Positions 125-7,738 of a stretch of 7,738 bases of DNA are shown piece by piece. Both the position numbers and the translations under genes were made by a program. The stretch comes from a virus (Duplodnaviria; Heunggongvirae; Uroviricota; Caudoviricetes). Location of the stretch: IMG/VR virus record IMGVR_UViG_2802429219_000018; one strand, given 5' to 3'. Under the pieces are notes generated by a model. That model saw only the letters and a list, made by a program, of their open reading frames with translations, had not been told where the DNA came from and did not search any database. How positions within the stretch are numbered: the first letter of the stretch is position 1; the number at the start of each line of letters is the position of its first letter.

Positions 125-448
125 TCAGTCTCAAAACGTGGGCATGTTGTCTCAAAATGCCTGCAAGTTGTCTCATTAAAAACAATAAATATTATTAAAT
201 AACATATAGATATATATTTTTGAGACAACCGAGACAACTGAGACAACCTAAACGATGTATTATGTGAGAGTATTTACAGCCATCAGATAGATTCCCAAAA
301 TTACTTCTATATATATACAGAATGTGGTTGTCTCAGTTGGTTCATTGTCTCAATAGGCAAAATATTGTTAAGTATCAACGCGTTATCAATAATAAGCGAG
401 ACAACCTAGTCAAAAATTGAGACAACTACCCCAAAAAATGAGACAACC
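125..448. repeat. Iteron array, putative origin of replication (ori) just 3' of the replication gene
   Basis: Octamer GAGACAAC at 222-229, 231-238, 240-247 (three tandem 9-bp units) and at 398-405, 419-426, 440-447 (21-bp phasing). Reverse-complement GTTGTCTC at 146-153, 167-174, 327-334, with degenerate copies at about 125-132 and 345-351. AT-rich tracts lie between the repeat blocks (about 176-220 and 301-318). No ORF covers the region. Confidence 0.6.
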
Positions 449-477: not shown

Positions 478-2616
478 CTATTCATCCAGTTCATCATCCA
501 TAAGTAATGCATACGCTCTTAACTGCTTACCGTTCAGATGCTTTATTCTGGGTGTTCTTGTTTGCCACCCTTTACCACTTGAAGGGCGTTTAAGCATATT
601 TGCCCCATGAAGCACACTTGCAGCATGGTTTGCATCAAATCCACTTGCCACCTCGGCTTTAAAAACAGCCGGAAGAACATAAAAAGTTATAGCATCATCA
701 AGGTTTGATTTTCCTTTATTTTTATAACCAGCAAGGTTATGAATACTCATCTGGCTCAATTCATCAAAATCAACAGGTACAAAACGACTAATGCTATTTG
801 CTGTAAGAAATGATGTTGCCTGCTCAATAATCTGCTCGTTTTCCTTATTGCCTGTCCCGAACTCAGCCACCCATACATTAAAAACATGCTGTAACGCATC
901 TCGACACGCTAATGAGTCCCATCCAGTAATATGTTCAGAAAGCAGCATTGCACATTCCATAACTGCAAAACGATCCTTTACTCTATGAACTTGCTCGCCG
1001 TAATGTTGCGGAATAAGAGAATCCCATCGCTCTAACGCTCGTTTATAAGCCTCCTTCGCTTCCTGTTGATGATCTGCAAGCCATCTGATCCACTCACGAC
1101 CCGCCGCGCCATAATTTTCTTTCCATGCTGCTTCCAGTGCCTTCGCATGTTTCTCTCCATTTTCGTATCCATGAAATTCAGTTGGTCGAGATACAGGGAT
1201 ATTCAGTAATCTAACGAGCTGTCCAGCTTTTACTTTGATTCCTGCTCCAGCGAGAAAAGTTTCAATACTTTTCTCTCCTGTACTGATAACAACCGTTTCG
1301 AAATATTTAATTTCACGGTTCCCACCATCAGGACTTCCCTGTAATTTCCCTTTTCCATTAAAAAGAGTATAAGACGACGTAAATACACTTCTGGCACTGG
1401 AAGCCTGCTCTATTTCATCAAGAGCCAATAAACAGTGATTATGTGATTCTGCTTCGTTAGTTATACCCAACGCCGTTCCATACCAGGAAAGCCGTTGTTG
1501 TTTTGGAATTCCATACAGACTTGAGGCAAAATCTTCCGCAGTTGTTTTTCCCGCTGTACTTTGCGCATACAGATGCACACCAAAGCCATCAGCACCAATA
1601 ACACCAATCAGCGGGGCTGCCAGTGACGTAGCAGCCGCCAGCATCTGAAACGGGTTTTTATATGCCAATTTTGCAACATTCTCGCGCCAGCTTTCAGTAG
1701 TTCCTTTTACGCGATAAGCCAGCCTTGAGGCACTTCCTCCGGTAAACATAACTGGGGTTTCAGGCTCACCAATAACATCACCATTTGGCATGATGTAGAT
1801 GCCACCAAACCACCCGGAACGTTGTGTAGCCGTATACTGTAACCCTTTCTGAGCTTCATTCTGTATCCAGTCAGATAGAAGCTCTCTGGCCTTATTTTGT
1901 GTAGTAATTTTTAATCCCCAGTCTTTAAGGCGTGACCATCCCTGAGGGGTTCCAATCATTCCGGCTCTAATACAATGAGTAACCATTTCCCCCCTGAATT
2001 TCCAGCGTAAAGCAATAAACATTGCGTCATTTTCTCTATCAAATCCTTCGCCTAACACTTCCAGAGGTGAGCACATCCATTGACCATGGCGGGTTATCTC
2101 TCCTGAACGTTCAATTTTTGGGGTAACCCAGTACATACCTACTGGATCCGCATTTATACGCAATTCAACGTAAGGCGCCAGTTCATCGCGTGCCTGATTA
2201 CTTGCAGATTGCACAATATCCGTCATCGACACTTCTCCGCTCTCTACCTGTTCACGGATCCGTTGCAAGTAGTCGCGCCAGTTCTCCGGCTCCCGGTCGG
2301 TGATGCCTTTGTATAATTTCGCATCCTGTACGCCAGCCAGCGCCAGCTTTTCAGCAATAGCGTTGATCTGAATTGGCTCCATTTCCCCCGCGATATAAAC
2401 ACGCGCAAAGCGGCGCTCATCGTCAATAATGCGGATATTCGCCAGGTCTGCCAGTTGCTTTGGCCCCAGGTAAACAGGTGGTACGTTATCGCCGTGTTTT
2501 CGTCCTTCGCTTTCAATCCAGTGTTGAGCATGGGAGTAAGCGTCCGTCCCGGCAAAAATGATTACCTCGGTGAATTTATCCTTCGGCTGATATTTTAAAT
2601 TCGGTGCGTTTTTCAC
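478..2616 (-). CDS. Replication initiator, putative primase/helicase (P-loop NTPase of the DUF927 / SF3-helicase-like type; N-terminal primase-like region not confidently assigned)
   Basis: 712-aa ORF with GTG start at 2616 preceded by GGGAGG six nt upstream. Walker A-like motif AQSTAGKTT and Walker B-like CLLALDEIEQ in the central region, in a context (HLYAQSTAGKTTAEDFASSLYG ... SWYGTALGITNE) that I recall resembling DUF927-type replication ATPases of integrative elements. Iteron array lies immediately downstream. Family assignment is from memory, not a search. Confidence 0.7.
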   Translation of the reverse strand: MKNAPNLKYQPKDKFTEVIIFAGTDAYSHAQHWIESEGRKHGDNVPPVYLGPKQLADLANIRIIDDERRFARVYIAGEMEPIQINAIAEKLALAGVQDAKLYKGITDREPENWRDYLQRIREQVESGEVSMTDIVQSASNQARDELAPYVELRINADPVGMYWVTPKIERSGEITRHGQWMCSPLEVLGEGFDRENDAMFIALRWKFRGEMVTHCIRAGMIGTPQGWSRLKDWGLKITTQNKARELLSDWIQNEAQKGLQYTATQRSGWFGGIYIMPNGDVIGEPETPVMFTGGSASRLAYRVKGTTESWRENVAKLAYKNPFQMLAAATSLAAPLIGVIGADGFGVHLYAQSTAGKTTAEDFASSLYGIPKQQRLSWYGTALGITNEAESHNHCLLALDEIEQASSARSVFTSSYTLFNGKGKLQGSPDGGNREIKYFETVVISTGEKSIETFLAGAGIKVKAGQLVRLLNIPVSRPTEFHGYENGEKHAKALEAAWKENYGAAGREWIRWLADHQQEAKEAYKRALERWDSLIPQHYGEQVHRVKDRFAVMECAMLLSEHITGWDSLACRDALQHVFNVWVAEFGTGNKENEQIIEQATSFLTANSISRFVPVDFDELSQMSIHNLAGYKNKGKSNLDDAITFYVLPAVFKAEVASGFDANHAASVLHGANMLKRPSSGKGWQTRTPRIKHLNGKQLRAYALLMDDELDE

Positions 2617-2903
2617 TTCTTACCTCCCGCAACCAACATTGCCCGGATTTTTTTAATATTCGTGGCTGCACGTCTCGCCACCGCCTGTTGTTTGTTTTCC
2701 ACCAGAATAAAATCACGCTCAAACTGACGGCGCGGCATTACGCAGTCATATTCGTAAGCCTCACGGCGGTAGGTGATATTGCCTGGCGTAACGTGACGAA
2801 TAACCACTCGTCCCCCACGTCTGGTGTCGCGGTAAATATCTCCGTGTCTGATTTCAGGCCGAGAGAGACCGCTGGCAGTAAAGCCAGAATTTTTCTTTTT
2901 CAT
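2613..2903 (-). CDS. Hypothetical small basic protein (96 aa), translationally coupled to the replication gene
   Basis: ATG at 2903 with AGGAAA about 8 nt upstream. Its TGA stop overlaps the GTG start of the replication gene (GTGA at 2616-2613). Lys/Arg-rich, protein-like composition. No family recognised. Confidence 0.55.
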   Translation of the reverse strand: MKKKNSGFTASGLSRPEIRHGDIYRDTRRGGRVVIRHVTPGNITYRREAYEYDCVMPRRQFERDFILVENKQQAVARRAATNIKKIRAMLVAGGKK

Positions 2904-2907
2904 GGTT

Positions 2908-3108
2908 TTATTTTCCTGTCAGCAGTTCCGGTTTTATTCCTGCACTAATACAGAGTTCAGAAAAGCCTTCTGCCGTACTTACAATTTCATTATTTCGCAG
3001 CCGGCATTGTGATTTCACTTTCCCTTTATCCAGGTAAACCAGTATGCGTCCGGTGAAATCCTCTGGCACATTCAGGGTAATTGTCATTGTTGCTGGCTTA
3101 TTACCCAT
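2908..3108 (-). CDS. Hypothetical protein (66 aa) carrying one copy of the FTG...ENG...ExxxEL repeat domain
   Basis: ATG at 3108 overlaps the stop of the upstream gene (ATGGGTAA, 3108-3101). A G-run lies 6 nt upstream as a likely ribosome-binding site. The sequence EDFTGRILVYLDKGKV...AEGFSELCISAG aligns with both repeats of the adjacent 122-aa protein. Confidence 0.55.
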   Translation of the reverse strand: MGNKPATMTITLNVPEDFTGRILVYLDKGKVKSQCRLRNNEIVSTAEGFSELCISAGIKPELLTGK

Positions 3109-3469
3109 GGTTCACCCCCCCCTGAATGACCTGATAACCGCAACTGGTCAGCAATTCGATAAATTCCGGCAGTGTGCCGAAACAGCAATCATCACGCAGC
3201 CGTTCGCGGGATACCTCGACGCCGTTTTCGTAGTGACTCACCATGCGTCCGGTAAAATGCAGATCATCATCGTGATGGCACGTTAACGGCTTAATCAGTC
3301 GCGCACGTTCCGCCAGTTCCAGCAATGCTTCAACGCTTCCGGCAATTGCACCATCCGGCAGGTGGTAATTACGCACTATGCGCCCGTTCTCCACATTGAC
3401 CAGCAACTGCCCGGTAAATTTCTCGTCAAACTGAATGCTGTTAAGGTCAGAAATTGACAGGTTATGCAT
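3101..3469 (-). CDS. Hypothetical protein (122 aa) with a tandem duplication of the FTG...ENG...ExxxEL domain
   Basis: ATG at 3469 with AGGAGG 7 nt upstream; the start overlaps the stop of the upstream 67-aa ORF (ATGCATAA, 3469-3462). Repeat A is EKFTGQLLVNVENGRIV...VEALLELAERA; repeat B is LHFTGRMVSHYENGVEV...LPEFIELLTSCG. Confidence 0.6.
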   Translation of the reverse strand: MHNLSISDLNSIQFDEKFTGQLLVNVENGRIVRNYHLPDGAIAGSVEALLELAERARLIKPLTCHHDDDLHFTGRMVSHYENGVEVSRERLRDDCCFGTLPEFIELLTSCGYQVIQGGVNHG

Positions 3470-3665
3470 GGTGCACCTCCTGGCGAATACGGGCAGCGAA
3501 TACCATCACGCAGCCATCAGGAGATTGCTGACGCGCTTCCTGTTCGCTGATGGCCTCGATGTGAATTACGCGCGGTTGTGCCGTACTCAGGGCGATAAAA
3601 CGCCAGATATATTTATTCAGGTTGTGCGAGTCCCGCCCTTGCGGGTGTGTGGTATGATTTCTCAT
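3462..3665 (-). CDS. Hypothetical small protein (67 aa), first gene of the replication operon
   Basis: Internal ATG at 3665 (in frame with the 3462..4457 ORF of the track) preceded by GAGG 5 nt upstream. Protein-like composition from this ATG onward, whereas the upstream part of the long ORF translates the operator repeats and the antisense of the + strand gene. Stop overlaps the next start. Confidence 0.45.
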   Translation of the reverse strand: MRNHTTHPQGRDSHNLNKYIWRFIALSTAQPRVIHIEAISEQEARQQSPDGCVMVFAARIRQEVHHA

Positions 3666-3756
3666 AGCTACCTCGATACTGTTGCTATCGTTGGTGGTTA
3701 GAAGCCCGGTTAGTGTTAGCGCACTGCCGGGTTTCGTCGTTTTTATGAATCGATCA

Positions 3757-3860
3757 TTGTGAGATACATAGTCATCACAATGTGAGATATACATTATATT
3801 GTGGTGATATACATTGCAAGTGTTTTTATATCTCACTTTTGTGTATAGTGATATACACAT
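3757..3860. promoter_or_regulatory. Operator-like repeat array in a divergent promoter region
   Basis: Direct copies of GTGA(G)ATA(TA)CA at 3759-3770, 3782-3795, 3804-3815 and 3848-3860, spaced about 22 bp apart, plus an inverted copy ATATCTCAC at 3828-3836. Inverted pair CATTGTGA (3755-3762) / TCACAATG (3774-3781). Candidate minus-strand promoter: -35 TTGCAA (3819..3814), 15-nt spacer, perfect -10 TATAAT (3798..3793). The array lies between the divergent starts at 3665 (minus) and 3880 (plus). Confidence 0.5.
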
Positions 3861-3879
3861 AACTAATTGGTGATTAACT

Positions 3880-4182
3880 ATGTCTGTATACAAAAATGCA
3901 AAATCGCAAATGACAACGATCAGGGTTCCCCACGATGTTATGGAGGGTATGGAATCCGTAAAACTGGACGGCGAAAGCAACGCCGGATTCATAGTAACCG
4001 CCATGCGTGGTGAGATCGCCCGCCGCCAGGCAGAAGGAAGAGGAGAAAATCCCCTGGTTTCTTCGCTCGATGCACTGGCGCAGGTGGAAAAAATCGGAGT
4101 CAAAGCAGCCGAGGAGATCGGGCAGCTCGTCACCGTCGCGCGTGAAGAACTCCAGCGCCGCAAGGCCAAAGAACAGGAGTAG
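3880..4182 (+). CDS. Small putative DNA-binding regulator, ribbon-helix-helix-like N-terminus (CopG/Arc/RelB-DinJ-like pattern) with a charged helical C-terminus
   Basis: ATG at 3880 with GGTGA 6 nt upstream. The N-terminal segment TTIRVPHDVMEGMESVKLDGESNAGFIVTAMRGEIARRQ fits a strand-helix-helix pattern. Composition is protein-like, whereas the overlapping minus-strand frame is Ser/Thr/Cys-rich. Only + strand gene in the window. Fold call is by eye. Confidence 0.5.
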   Translation: MSVYKNAKSQMTTIRVPHDVMEGMESVKLDGESNAGFIVTAMRGEIARRQAEGRGENPLVSSLDALAQVEKIGVKAAEEIGQLVTVAREELQRRKAKEQE

Positions 4183-4403
4183 TTGATCAGCACCGGGCAA
4201 CCAGAAAAAATCGTATCAGTCGCGCTACCAGCAAAATTTTTTGCTTTCCGGACAGCGTGGCCAACGGCATTTTGCAGCAAAATATTCTGCATTTCTGGCG
4301 TGCTGTAGTAACGGTGATCAGCGCCTTCACATTGAACGAACTTGTCGCTAAAATTCACCCATATAGCAAACATCGCGGTGCTACAGGTAATTCGTTCACA
4401 AAG

Positions 4404-4435
4404 GCGCTCCGGCAACGGGGCGCTTTCTCTTTTTG
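4404..4435 (+). terminator. Rho-independent terminator, + strand orientation
   Basis: Stem GCGCTCCG (4404-4411), GCAA tetraloop (4412-4415), stem CGGGGCGC (4416-4423): 8 bp with one G-U pair, followed by TTTCTCTTTTT (4424-4434). It lies between the convergent 3880-4182 (+) and 4450-5250 (-) genes. The reverse strand has only a weak U-tract (CUUUGUG). Confidence 0.6.
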
Positions 4436-4449
4436 TAACGGTCAGAGCG

Positions 4450-5250
4450 TTACACATGGCTGTTTTCCTCCATGCGACGGGCTAACCAACGCTGCGAAAG
4501 ACGAATTAATTCAGCTTTCCGCTGGTGGTAGTCCTGGCCTAACTCAATCAGCGTGATATTGCTCTGCTCAAGGTAAGAAAGGTGCTCAAGCTGCAATGTG
4601 CTCATGTGGTCGCGTGGTTCGCCTGTGATGTCGTTCGCCTGCGCCCACTGTTTTGCAGTCATGCCACCCAGCACGATACGCGCCAGCATGTTCGCTTCCG
4701 TGGTGTAGTGGTGCTGGAGTGTGTTTTTACCCAGTTCAGCCCGGTACGCCTCCAGCGCGGCACACATTGGCTTAAAGTAGCTGGCAACTGTGATACGGGC
4801 TTTCAGTTCCCGGCGTAACGCTGCGGAACGCACTGGCGCTACCTTGTGTAGCTCCTCCTCGCATTTGATGAAGTACTGACGAACGGCGCGGCCCTGTTCG
4901 GTGCGTTCGACCATCGCCAGTTCTTTCGCCATGTTGATAGTGCTCAGGTAGTCGTGCTCTATACGTTGGCGAGATTTTGCGCTCACCGGATTGGGGGAGG
5001 TCAAATTTTCTACGAATTCAAAATCCACGCCCTTTTTAAATCCGTACTCATCAATGCGTCCTTTAATCCAGGTTGTGAAATCACGGCCTACCCCGAGCGC
5101 CTTATGCAACGCTCTGGCGCTAACAATATTGGTTTCACGCCCGCCAATAACGCCGGAAATAACCGGGATAATTTCGCCAAAATTTTGCAGATTCTGGTTT
5201 TCAGGCCGAACGAAGCCCTGCCCCTGTACGGGCGTTTTTGGAAATTTCAT
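4450..5250 (-). CDS. Phage antirepressor-like protein, AntA/AntB (Bro-N-like) N-terminal domain
   Basis: ATG at 5250 with AGGAG 5 nt upstream. The N-terminal region ARALHKALGVGRDFTTWIKGRIDEYGFKKGVDFEF...DYLSTINMAKELAMVERTEQGRAVRQYFIKCEEEL matches the characteristic AntA-domain pattern (L-H..L.V...F..WI..RI..YGF..G.DF ... Y.LT.DMAKEL.MVER...G...R.YFI.CE) as I recall it. C-terminal half unassigned. Confidence 0.7.
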   Translation of the reverse strand: MKFPKTPVQGQGFVRPENQNLQNFGEIIPVISGVIGGRETNIVSARALHKALGVGRDFTTWIKGRIDEYGFKKGVDFEFVENLTSPNPVSAKSRQRIEHDYLSTINMAKELAMVERTEQGRAVRQYFIKCEEELHKVAPVRSAALRRELKARITVASYFKPMCAALEAYRAELGKNTLQHHYTTEANMLARIVLGGMTAKQWAQANDITGEPRDHMSTLQLEHLSYLEQSNITLIELGQDYHQRKAELIRLSQRWLARRMEENSHV

Positions 5251-5327
5251 AAAAACTCCTGCTATCGAATTAAGTTACTTTTATTTGCTGGTGGATAGCT
5301 GGGGGCAATAGCCCCGTAGCCATTTAA

Positions 5328-5525
5328 TCAGGTAGCTGTTCCGCGTGATTCCGCAATACGCTGATTAATCCACTCGTCAATTTCACTCTCAACGAAAGCA
5401 ATCGCTCGCGAGCCAATTTTTACAGGTTTAGGAAAACGCCCTTGGGCAATGAGTTTATAGATCCATGCCCTGCCATAGCCTGTACGGCGCATGGTTTCTG
5501 GCATACGAATTAAAGATTGTGACAT
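5328..5525 (-). CDS. alpA: AlpA-family phage regulatory protein (excisionase-like helix-turn-helix)
   Basis: The segment IRMPETMRRTGYGRAWIYKLIAQGRFPKPVKIGSRAIAFVESEIDEWINQR matches the AlpA family signature. I chose the start at ATG 5525 (GGGAGA 8 nt upstream, giving 65 aa); the track ORF extends to a GTG at 5594, which lacks an SD and lies inside an operator palindrome. Confidence 0.85.
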   Translation of the reverse strand: MSQSLIRMPETMRRTGYGRAWIYKLIAQGRFPKPVKIGSRAIAFVESEIDEWINQRIAESRGTAT

Positions 5526-5590
5526 GATAATCGTCTCCCGTTGTTTATTGATGCCTACGGGAGACATTGAAGCAGGTAAGACATTGGATA

Positions 5591-5630
5591 TCACCGCAAT
5601 TGCGGTGAATGATACCGCAATTGCGGTATA
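5591..5630. promoter_or_regulatory. Two perfect 18-bp palindromic operator-like sites upstream of alpA
   Basis: TCACCGCAATTGCGGTGA (5591-5608) and ATACCGCAATTGCGGTAT (5612-5629), sharing the 14-bp perfect palindrome ACCGCAATTGCGGT; centres 21 bp apart. They lie between the stop of the 251-aa gene (5640) and the alpA start. No U-tract follows either site, so they are not intrinsic terminators. Confidence 0.55.
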
Positions 5631-5639
5631 GGACTACAA

Positions 5640-6395
5640 CTACGATTTAATTGATTTATTGGCTTCAGCAAACTTTGCTTCCAGCGTTCTTGAACTCATC
5701 CCCGGCTTACCTTCAAAATGTCCCAATAAATTACTAATAATAGAGCTTTGATTTTCGAATACAGATTGCTTAATACCAGCAGGTGAACGCCCTAACATTA
5801 GAAAAAGCAACCCTCCAATAATGTTTAAATATGTTGTTTCAGAACGTTGGTCAATGTTTTGCACGGAGTTATCAACCATTCGTCGTAGTGAATCACGTTC
5901 CCCTTGTAATTCGGAAATTTCATTTTTCTGCTGTTGGAAAGTCTTCATAGCATTATCTAAGCGAATATTAAGACGTTTGTTTTCAGCCTGAAGAGTTTGA
6001 TATGCCTCGACTGTAATTCCAGCATGTAACTGCTGCTCAACAGCATCAAAAAGGAAAGCTGGTTTTTGGTTGGGATAGTTTTTTGACATCCATGATTTCA
6101 GATCGGAATGGCGGACGGTTAAACGGTGCTTAGCAACCTGTTCTCCAGGTTGAACAGTTTTACCATCACGGCCATAAGGAATTTCACAATTATGGATTGC
6201 ATCTAAAATTTTCTCAGCATTAACACGCAAGCAAGGCCATTGAGGGAACATTCCAACGCTAGGTAAAACTCCATCTCCCACTCGCTCCAATATTAAAACT
6301 TCATGAGCAATTAAATTACACCAACGTAGCGCCGCTTCAATTGGAGTGTAATATGCCTTTTCAAGAGAACTACAGCTTTTTGAATTGTAAGTCAC
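5640..6395 (-). CDS. Hypothetical protein (251 aa) in the integrase-alpA cargo slot; predicted N-terminal globular domain, coiled coil and hydrophobic helix
   Basis: GTG start at 6395 with GAGG 9 nt upstream; TAG stop 5642-5640. Hand GC counts on four 60-nt blocks (5701-5760, 5821-5880, 6001-6060, 6241-6300) give about 33-43 percent, against about 47-60 percent in int and ant blocks. Heptad-like segment QTLQAENKRLNIRLDNAMKTFQQQKNEISELQGERDSLRRMVDN followed by hydrophobic TTYLNIIGGLLFLMLG. No family recognised. Confidence 0.7.
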   Translation of the reverse strand: MTYNSKSCSSLEKAYYTPIEAALRWCNLIAHEVLILERVGDGVLPSVGMFPQWPCLRVNAEKILDAIHNCEIPYGRDGKTVQPGEQVAKHRLTVRHSDLKSWMSKNYPNQKPAFLFDAVEQQLHAGITVEAYQTLQAENKRLNIRLDNAMKTFQQQKNEISELQGERDSLRRMVDNSVQNIDQRSETTYLNIIGGLLFLMLGRSPAGIKQSVFENQSSIISNLLGHFEGKPGMSSRTLEAKFAEANKSIKS

Positions 6396-6523
6396 TCTGT
6401 GCTACCTCGCACCCTCTGTAAAAGTGGCTGTGCCAGCCCGCAGAGGTGTACGGGTTTTCAGGAGCGACCCTAGACACAGCCTTTTCTTAATCGCTCAAAG
6501 TCTACTACTGTATACTCAACCAG

Positions 6524-7738
6524 TCACCCGCATTTTCCGAACTCACCATGCACCACATTTCCGCCATGCTCGAGCGAATCCATATAATCGGCGTACCACT
6601 GAAGCATTTCCCGCCGTCCATCCAGATATTGCGCATGGTTGTATGTGCCACGAATTGAGTTTTTATCGACGTGTGCGAGCTGCGTCTCTATCCATGCGGT
6701 GTTATAGCCCTGCTCATGCAAAATGGTGCTCATGGTGTGCCGGAATCCATGACCAGTAACCTTTCCGTTATAGCCGATGCGTTTAAATACTTGGTTTATG
6801 CTAGCCTCGCTCATTGTTTTCCTTGGATCATTACGGCCGGGAAACATAAGCGGATAATTGCCAGTTAATTCTTTAATCTGCCCAATAAGAGAAAGAGCCT
6901 GCTTAGACAAAGGCACCACATGAGGGCGACGCATTTTCATCCGTGAAGCAGGTATCTCCCAGATAGCCTTGTTGAGATCGATTTCATCCCATAATGCACC
7001 GCGCAGTTCGCCAGTTCGCAAACCAGTGATAATCAGTAGACGAGCCGCCATAACAACCAATGCACTTCCTGAGTAACTGGACAATGCCTTGAAAAAATCA
7101 GGCAATTCTTTGGCTGTGAGGAAAGGATAATGATTAGATTCATGGCCTTGCATCGCGCTAGTAAGATCTGGGGCAGGGTTATACTCTGCGCGACCAGTGA
7201 CTATTGCATAGCGGAAAACTTCCCCACACCGCTGCCTCACTTTTTTGGCTTTTTCTGTAGCACCGCGCCCCTCGATGCGTCGCAGCACATTCAGAAGTTC
7301 AAGTGGTTTGATTTCGGCGATTGGTTTTTTGCCAATGTAAGGGAACACATCTTTGTTGAAGGCTTCGAGGATGTCTGAAGCATAACCAGCAGACCATTTT
7401 TTTAATTTGCTGCTGTGCCACTCAAGGGCAATATCTTTGAAGGTGTTGTTTAACTGCGTTTCCCGGGCAATCTTTTCCTCTCGTTTCGCTTCCATCGGAT
7501 CGATACCCCCAGCGATACCCCTTTTAGCTTCTTCACGTTTTGCACGAGCATCAGCCAAGGTAACTTCAGGATACACACCTAGTGCTAACAGCTTCTCTTT
7601 ACCAGCTACACGATACTTGAAGCGCCAATATTTTCCTCCACTAGGTTTTACCAAGAGATACAGACCACCACCATCAGCCAGCTTGTAAGCCTTCTCTTTT
7701 GGCTTGGCAGTGTCTATTTGACGGGCATTGAGTTTCAC
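6524..7738 (-). CDS. int: Site-specific tyrosine integrase, P4-type (N-terminal arm-binding domain plus catalytic domain)
   Basis: The N-terminus KLNARQIDTAKPKEKAYKLADGGGLYLLVKPSGGKYWRFKYRVAGKEK is the typical P4-family integrase arm-binding region. C-terminal catalytic signature HGFRHT...LAH...RGTYNHAQY (H-x-x-R, catalytic Tyr). The ORF starts with GTG at the very last base of the window, so the true start may be at or just beyond the edge. Confidence 0.9.
   Translation of the reverse strand: MKLNARQIDTAKPKEKAYKLADGGGLYLLVKPSGGKYWRFKYRVAGKEKLLALGVYPEVTLADARAKREEAKRGIAGGIDPMEAKREEKIARETQLNNTFKDIALEWHSSKLKKWSAGYASDILEAFNKDVFPYIGKKPIAEIKPLELLNVLRRIEGRGATEKAKKVRQRCGEVFRYAIVTGRAEYNPAPDLTSAMQGHESNHYPFLTAKELPDFFKALSSYSGSALVVMAARLLIITGLRTGELRGALWDEIDLNKAIWEIPASRMKMRRPHVVPLSKQALSLIGQIKELTGNYPLMFPGRNDPRKTMSEASINQVFKRIGYNGKVTGHGFRHTMSTILHEQGYNTAWIETQLAHVDKNSIRGTYNHAQYLDGRREMLQWYADYMDSLEHGGNVVHGEFGKCG

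Follow-up and report, generated by a model that had tools for sequence, protein, structure and literature searches.

The stretch of DNA analysed here (7,738 nucleotides of the IMG/VR virus record IMGVR_UViG_2802429219_000018, referred to below as the window) carries its major genes all on the minus strand: an integrase gene (6524-7738), alpA (5328-5594), antA (4450-5250), an open reading frame (3462-4457) with an Icd-like C-terminal end, a DUF4222 gene (2613-2903), and the replication gene rep (478-2616). Past the rep stop codon (478-480) lie an array of short repeats (128-447) and, at the left edge, the terminus of an IS3-family (ISEc48-like) insertion sequence (1-127). An int-alpA RNA motif (Rfam RF02996; 6412-6480, minus strand; 49.8 bits, E = 3e-8) is located between the integrase gene and alpA. 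The 331-codon open reading frame at 3462-4457 is probably over-extended: its similarity to Icd-like proteins is confined to the last ~50 residues, and, as in related islands, it encloses a gene of the YlcI/YnfO family on the plus strand (3880-4182; E = 5e-20). Positions 2233-7738 of the window are 93.5% identical to positions 296469-302685 of E. coli 55989, where they belong to an island (296286-311648) that sits at tRNA-Thr and was tabulated as a phage-inducible chromosomal island (PICI) by Fillol-Salom et al. 2018 (PMC6092414). The window itself has several features by which PICIs are recognized: the integrase gene is at one end, an AlpA regulator is encoded, and transcription through rep runs in a single direction. 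Its gene order (int, alpA, icd-like, DUF4222, rep, ori, PerC) is shared with EcCICFT073. The window ends inside the insertion sequence (IS), so the far end of the island is out of view; relatives that encode an identical Rep are islands of roughly 12-14 kb with no capsid or tail set.

The 712-residue Rep protein comprises an N-terminal alpha/beta domain (residues 1-127), a DUF927 ATPase body (domain match 7.9e-45) with the Walker A motif STAGKT of a P-loop at residues 353-358, and a C-terminal domain. Its best sequence match in the PDB (phmmer) is the SaPIbov1 initiator-helicase (8tch; E = 9e-12), and a Foldseek search with its AlphaFold model (mean pLDDT 78) retrieved the SCCmec helicase Cch (5dgk; 6.5e-20) and 8tch (2.2e-18). 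The relationship to SaPI Rep is remote (15-18% identity), and the NCBIfam model Cch1 matches weakly, with 43 bits versus an equivalog cutoff of 700. By sequence comparison and predicted fold, Rep belongs to the family of self-loading helicases represented by SaPI Rep and SCCmec Cch, and is predicted to form a hexamer. Residues 589-712 are of low confidence in the full-length model (pLDDT 30-57), and a second model, of residues 536-712 (mean pLDDT 66), resolved only a 64-residue core (643-706; pLDDT 73-88; codons at 499-690, minus strand) with a beta-alpha-alpha-beta hairpin topology, consisting of a strand, two helices and a long hairpin. The best fold match of this core (Foldseek) is the winged helix-turn-helix of TcpK on oriT DNA (5vfx), with a probability of 0.99 and an E value of only 0.08; the models are suggestive of a winged helix, and this winged-helix-like C-terminal domain is the putative reader of the repeats. 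Pfam scans of two pieces of Rep (residues 1-145 and 585-712) returned nothing significant. The N-terminal domain (window 2233-2616; pLDDT ~88, no Pfam match) is common to Reps with unrelated helicase bodies, such as those of EcCICFT073 and the DUF927 variant of E. coli 55989, at 55-98% identity; four homologues (P0029-P0032) have a zinc-ribbon plus Toprim module in its place, and the recombination breakpoint falls in a disordered linker (residues 128-142).

The octamer GAGACAAC has nine exact copies in the 7738-base window, all of them within 146-447, compared with a chance expectation of 0.14 (maximum 1) from dinucleotide-preserving shuffles of the window. Three exact copies are on the minus strand (starting at 146, 167 and 327) and six on the plus strand (222, 231, 240, 398, 419 and 440); the whole array sits in the gap past the rep stop codon, the nearest iteron ending at 447. 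A two-mismatch copy, GAACCAAC (336-343, minus strand), and a one-mismatch copy, GAGACAAT (344-351, minus strand), make up a degenerate tandem triplet with the exact copy at 327-334. With a further copy that is cut by the IS, the array has twelve slots (3+3+3+3), nine of them exact and three degenerate or cut. Slots 1 to 3 are minus-strand copies phased at 21 bp: slot 1 (128-132) retains GAGAC and is perfect in intact relatives, one of which (L001) has an exact GAGACAAC there, 21 bp from slot 2; slot 2 (146-153) is exact, with TTTT ahead of it on its own strand; and slot 3 (167-174) is exact. Slots 4 to 6 (222-229, 231-238 and 240-247, plus strand) are three exact copies in 9-bp tandem. Slots 7 to 9 (327-351, minus strand) are the degenerate triplet, which is the same in L001 and in another relative, L088. 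Slots 10 to 12 (398-405, 419-426 and 440-447, plus strand) are exact and phased at 21 bp, with an A-tract before each; over the array as a whole, a tract of T4 or A5-6 stands before every phased copy. Tandem Repeats Finder independently reported two arrays with a 21-bp period (128-175 and 398-448) and a threefold 9-bp array (222-248). The start and end coordinates of paired slots sum to 572-574, so that the twelve slots have near-perfect dyad symmetry about a centre at ~286. They are arranged as two half-origins; in each of these, an AT-rich tract separates three copies phased at 21 bp from three in 9-bp tandem, and all six point away from the tract. In the intact relative, the array is composed of ten exact copies, one with one mismatch and one with two, for a total of twelve. 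The original prediction, which had been drawn from these letters alone, counted about ten octamers in both orientations; the repeats and their orientations stand, and the count is corrected to twelve slots. It had also described two-helical-turn phasing (146/167 and 398/419/440), three tandem 9-bp units (222-247), inverted blocks around AT-rich tracts and an adjoining P-loop replication gene, all of which are confirmed.

The first AT-rich tract (175-221) has a GC content of 0.06 and is predicted to serve the distal half-origin as its DNA-unwinding element; the second (353-397), with a GC content of 0.29, belongs to the rep-proximal half-origin. The GC content of the window is 0.46. Of all 40-mers in the 7.7-kb window, 177-217 is the least stable (dG -36.4 versus a mean of -55.1 +/- 4.4, about 4 SD away), and 282-322 ranks second, both being inside the array. 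The central spacer (248-326, 79 bp) holds the dyad centre and a conserved (TA)n element (305-317), with GTATATATATA invariant across three diverged origins. In nearly all relatives, a (TA)n or TTTTG-n-TATATA motif comes after the plus-oriented tandem triplet, for example ~10 nt past the last tandem triplet in L010, L012, L020 and L036; it may be a start site, a second unwinding element, or the -10 element of a promoter for the downstream operon. The IHF consensus TATCAACGCGTTA has a single match, at 373-385 inside the second AT-rich tract, and this is one consensus match only. A search for DnaA boxes gave no match below position 520, which fits a self-loading helicase, yet takes away one independent hallmark of an origin. 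In the origin region, Rfam gave no match to any RNA family.

When one genome per species was scanned, 80 loci with relatives of Rep were retrieved, 77 of them usable. Of these 77 loci, which span many genera, 73 have an 8-mer in three or more copies in the 450 bp 3' of rep, and the repeat is specific to the lineage: GAACCAAC in 39 loci, GAGACAAC in 11, and in others the 8-mers GGGACAAC, GGGATAAG, TAACCCAC, TAACCCGT, GGTACAAC and GAACCACG, or further repeats that include GAACCGA, ACCGACAA and TTGGACAA. The layout is kept across loci as the sequence changes: triplets recur in 9-bp tandem, opposite-facing copies are spaced at 11 and 21 bp and accompanied by T-tracts, and the intervening DNA is AT-rich. 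For copies in the same orientation, the spacings have peaks at 9 (82 cases), 11 (52), 18 (35) and 21 (103). The number of copies per origin clusters at 5-6 and at 10-12 and never exceeds 12 in ~70 origins, and, of the full classes, that with twelve copies is the most frequent (13 loci). In most relatives with twelve copies, the tandem triplets are the outer elements and the phased copies the inner ones; in the window and its nearest relatives with the same iteron (L088, L094 and L095), the two halves are in the opposite order. Among three diverged GAGACAAC origins, 85% of iteron columns are invariant versus 55% of other columns (Fisher p = 7e-8). In origins of the GAGACAAC class (the window at 336-343; L006, L009, L094 and L095), one or two fixed slots are regularly occupied by GAACCAAC-type copies, which suggests either that specificity switched recently from this commoner class or that cross-recognition is tolerated.

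The iteron class covaries with the C-terminus of Rep. Mutual information between Rep columns and iteron class peaks at residues 683-702, with a value of 0.97 versus 0.2-0.7 elsewhere, and residues 686 and 688 are the only columns that perfectly split GAGACAAC-type from GAACCAAC-type Reps; the corresponding codons, T686-R687-T688 (553-561, minus strand), are located in the predicted wing. For pairs of Reps that are 0.9-1.0 identical elsewhere, the identity within 683-702 is 0.96 if the iteron is the same and 0.59 if it is different. Two Reps with bodies 95% identical (L053 and L055) have 53% identity in 683-702 and different iterons, and the closest overall homologue of the window Rep (P0002, 74%) is accompanied by twelve copies of GAACCAAC and has WQVKT where the window Rep has WQTRT. 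The signal needed per-column and matched-identity analyses; sliding-window identity of the window Rep to Reps with the same or another iteron gave no localised signal. The recognition code is not simple: the Rep of L055 is paired with the same octamer as the window Rep at only 40% identity in 683-702, and Xenorhabdus Reps with QGKT are also paired with GAGACAAC. On a larger scale, the repeats of the E. coli 55989 island are CGGGATAT, and its Rep is identical to the window Rep over the first ~125 residues and about 40% identical thereafter; the repeats of SCU-104 and CFT073 are of the GGTAGAC type and accompany a different helicase body. Despite the unrelated iterons, the DUF4222, ProQ/FinO and PerC proteins are 94-95% identical between the 55989 island and GAGACAAC islands. 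Thus, the iterons and the part of Rep past residue ~128 switch together and the flanking genes do not, so that rep and ori behave as one exchangeable cassette, whose edges are at ~2230 in the window and, in intact islands, just past the last iteron.

Iteron replicons of plasmids (pSC101, R6K, RK2, F and P1) have small dimeric WH1-WH2 initiators, direct iterons of 17-22 bp, DnaA boxes, and host DnaB/DnaC loading. The window resembles them in having repeated initiator sites beside an AT-rich unwinding element, and differs in that the initiator is a 712-residue helicase, the repeats are 8-9 bp long and in both orientations, and there is no DnaA box. Phage P4 is likewise a satellite, with the same host range as the island. 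The alpha protein of P4 combines the helicase and C-terminal winged-helix origin recognition in one polypeptide that recognizes octamer repeats, which are split between two distant sites, ori and crr; the type-I repeat is TGTTCACC. This repeat has no match in the window, the window Rep has a DUF927 domain and is not of the P4 alpha type, and a PDB sequence search with Rep gave no match to the P4 origin-binding domain; the octamer is distinct from that of P4, as originally proposed. The best structural match of Rep, the MCM-like DUF927 helicase Cch (5dgk; TM 0.67 on the target), comes from a staphylococcal cassette chromosome.

In SaPIs, the C-terminal winged helix of Rep binds 6-12 short iterons directly 3' of rep, half of the iterons are on each side of an AT-rich centre, Rep loads itself, and as few as two iterons per side are needed (PMC9371898). 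The Rep or PriRep proteins of SaPIbov1, SaPI1 and SaPI5 are in the same helicase family as the window Rep by sequence and predicted fold, and the origin is likewise just 3' of rep with opposite-facing iterons and AT-rich DNA; each half-origin of the window has three copies on either side of an AT-rich tract (175-221 and 353-397), pointing away from it. The differences are that SaPI iterons are 5-6 nt versus a core of 8-9 nt in the window, that a SaPI origin has one AT-rich centre versus two half-origins, each with tandem and phased triplets, and that SaPIs have Gram-positive hosts, unlike the Gram-negative type of PICI to which the window belongs. The only functionally tested origin of a Gram-negative PICI is that of EcCICFT073, the rep-ori region of which allowed a temperature-sensitive plasmid to replicate, an effect that required rep as well as ori (PMC6092414). 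Like that of the window, the EcCICFT073 origin is directly 3' of rep and has short iterons in two orientations flanking AT-rich DNA, and the N-terminal ~125 residues of the two Reps are homologous. The EcCICFT073 Rep is a different allele, however: it has 584 residues, its body is annotated as 'DNA primase family' and has no similarity to the window Rep past residue ~125, and its iteron is GGTAGAC-like where that of the window is GAGACAAC. The proposal that the array is an iteron origin with an unwinding element, placed immediately downstream of the replication gene as in PICIs, is supported both by sequence comparison and by this literature on EcCICFT073 and SaPIs (PMC6092414, PMC9371898). 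Since this layout has already been described for PICIs, what the window adds is a well-resolved example, not an element of a new kind.

With a probability of roughly 0.85, positions 128-447 are the cognate iteron origin of the initiator-helicase encoded at 478-2616 (minus strand) in a Gram-negative PICI. Sequence and model evidence of four kinds supports this reading: the statistics of the anatomy, the family to which Rep belongs, the conservation of the layout, and the co-switching of the iteron with residues 683-702. Indirectly, two closed circular records of 12 kb and 16 kb that are entire PICIs with DUF927 reps also speak for it. Upon induction by a helper phage, Rep would be made, and the winged-helix-like C-terminal domain of each Rep subunit would read one unit of T-GAGACAAC; with six such units per half-origin, one hexamer could be seated on each half. 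Binding of Rep would melt the AT-rich tract, that at 175-221 most readily, and the helicase would load itself with no separate loader, the two half-origins giving rise to two hexamers and bidirectional forks. This mechanism is modelled on the SaPI literature and on the pattern of six or twelve copies. A stricter version is possible, if against the odds, in which the twelve-slot design is a stoichiometric template with one hexamer per half, one C-terminal domain per iteron, and a double hexamer overall. It would fit the observations that copy number stops at 12 and clusters around ~6 and ~12, that the halves are permutable and are swapped in the window and its closest relatives, and that specificity resides in a short exchangeable segment of Rep (683-702, with 686/688) that has been swapped repeatedly between 95%-identical Reps. 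If the template were true, the origin and its initiator would be a naturally modular, re-programmable pair.

The sequence of 1-127 occurs in 1026 of 5426 complete E. coli genomes, with annotation as an IS3 or ISEc48 transposase. Its identity to other copies of the IS stops at 127 (...CCAGCTCA), and an intact island in E. coli RM9088 reads GGTTGTCTCAAAACG across the junction, which places the IS inside the outermost iteron; the insertion took 3 bp of that iteron and everything beyond, and separates the origin from the downstream operon. The original prediction had begun the feature at position 125, which is not a natural boundary, the junction at 127|128 being that of the IS; it had the array right and missed the truncation, the twelve-slot symmetry and the IS nature of the minus-strand open reading frame that starts at 63. 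That open reading frame was considered as the next gene of the island and rejected, as it is orfA of the IS, and a 66-bp phage match (62-127, PhiR41_1) considered as a helper-related promoter was rejected as another copy of the IS end. With one iteron cut, the window copy may be impaired, and it could be an origin by descent that no longer functions, in an IS-hit, decaying element. Besides the junction inside slot 1 and the separation of the downstream genes, such decay would be consistent with the two degenerate copies already present in the rep-proximal half, and with the 16 other contigs that encode an identical Rep, in every one of which the IS is absent and the downstream operon (a hypothetical gene, ProQ/FinO and PerC) is still in place. 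Loss of function is nevertheless unlikely, since the copy still has 11 of its 12 slots, the two AT-rich tracts and an intact open reading frame for Rep, many relatives apparently work with only 5-6 copies, and a SaPI origin needs as few as two iterons per side (PMC9371898).

The assignment of the entire array to the origin, as preferred here, may be compared with an interpretation in which the distal half (128-247) is the true origin and the proximal half (327-447) consists of iterons for copy control, enhancement or handcuffing. The crr site of P4 and the inc iterons of plasmids are models for a control-type set. Among the diverged origins the distal half is nearly invariant and better kept than the proximal half, which in L094 is degenerate and in L095 is spaced differently; a single unit of 5-6 copies is present in many relatives, and of the two AT-rich tracts the distal one is by far the less stable. 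Against these observations, both halves have the same divergent 3+3 design around an AT-rich tract, and origins of twelve copies are the commonest full class (13 loci). A division of labour between the halves is accordingly judged improbable, and an origin comprising both halves is retained as the preferred reading.

The repeats might instead be operators through which a regulator other than Rep (AlpA, PerC, DUF4222 or a helper-phage factor) controls the downstream operon, an idea to which the location of the array lends itself, since in intact relatives it occupies a gap of ~400 bp between rep and the next operon and the gap contains a few sigma-70-like hexamer pairs. Scans of positions 1-700 for promoters and terminators, however, did not rise above chance, with 5 sigma-70-like pairs versus 2.4 +/- 1.5 expected. 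The flanking genes also fail to follow the repeats: DUF4222, ProQ and PerC keep their 94-95% identity where the repeats differ wholly, and the repeats co-switch only with the C-terminus of Rep. This covariation, together with the conserved flanking genes, makes an operator function very improbable. A partition (centromere-like) or packaging (cos/pac) site is scarcely credible, for although short repeats in helical phase, with A-tracts, are reminiscent of certain plasmid centromeres, no ParA/ParB/ParM-type gene was found in the window or in intact relatives, and the position, layout and covariation with Rep are those of described PICI origins.

With the array assigned to replication by Rep, its kind, position and general design are already published, and the accepted picture of PICI replication is unchanged. 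The details that appear to be new are the GAGACAAC specificity (a full-text literature search for this sequence as an iteron returned nothing relevant), the symmetric anatomy of twelve slots in two permutable halves, the localization of specificity within a C-terminal segment of ~20 residues, and the IS inside an iteron. A concrete origin is assigned at base level to the DUF927-type Rep allele of enterobacterial PICIs, and rep (from residue ~128 onward) and ori are found to move as one cassette between island backbones. The comparison across the family predicts which residues of Rep read the iteron and why there are six or twelve sites, which bears on the incompatibility of satellites, on helper-independent replication, and on the assembly of self-loading helicases at origins.

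Islands with this identical Rep have at least four different integrases in front. At the distal ends of five related islands (L088-L092) are differing accessory genes (SieB, SocA/Panacea, GmrSD-like and a lytic transglycosylase), some of which look like anti-phage defence cargo. Two other relatives, L096 (NZ_CP148430.1, 12.2 kb) and L097 (NZ_CP069874.1, 16.0 kb), were deposited as circular non-mobilizable plasmids and are whole PICIs as closed circles, with int, alpA or antA, icd-like and DUF927 rep genes; the Klebsiella record of the two also has capsid, portal, protease and terminase genes and is similar to capsid-forming PICIs.
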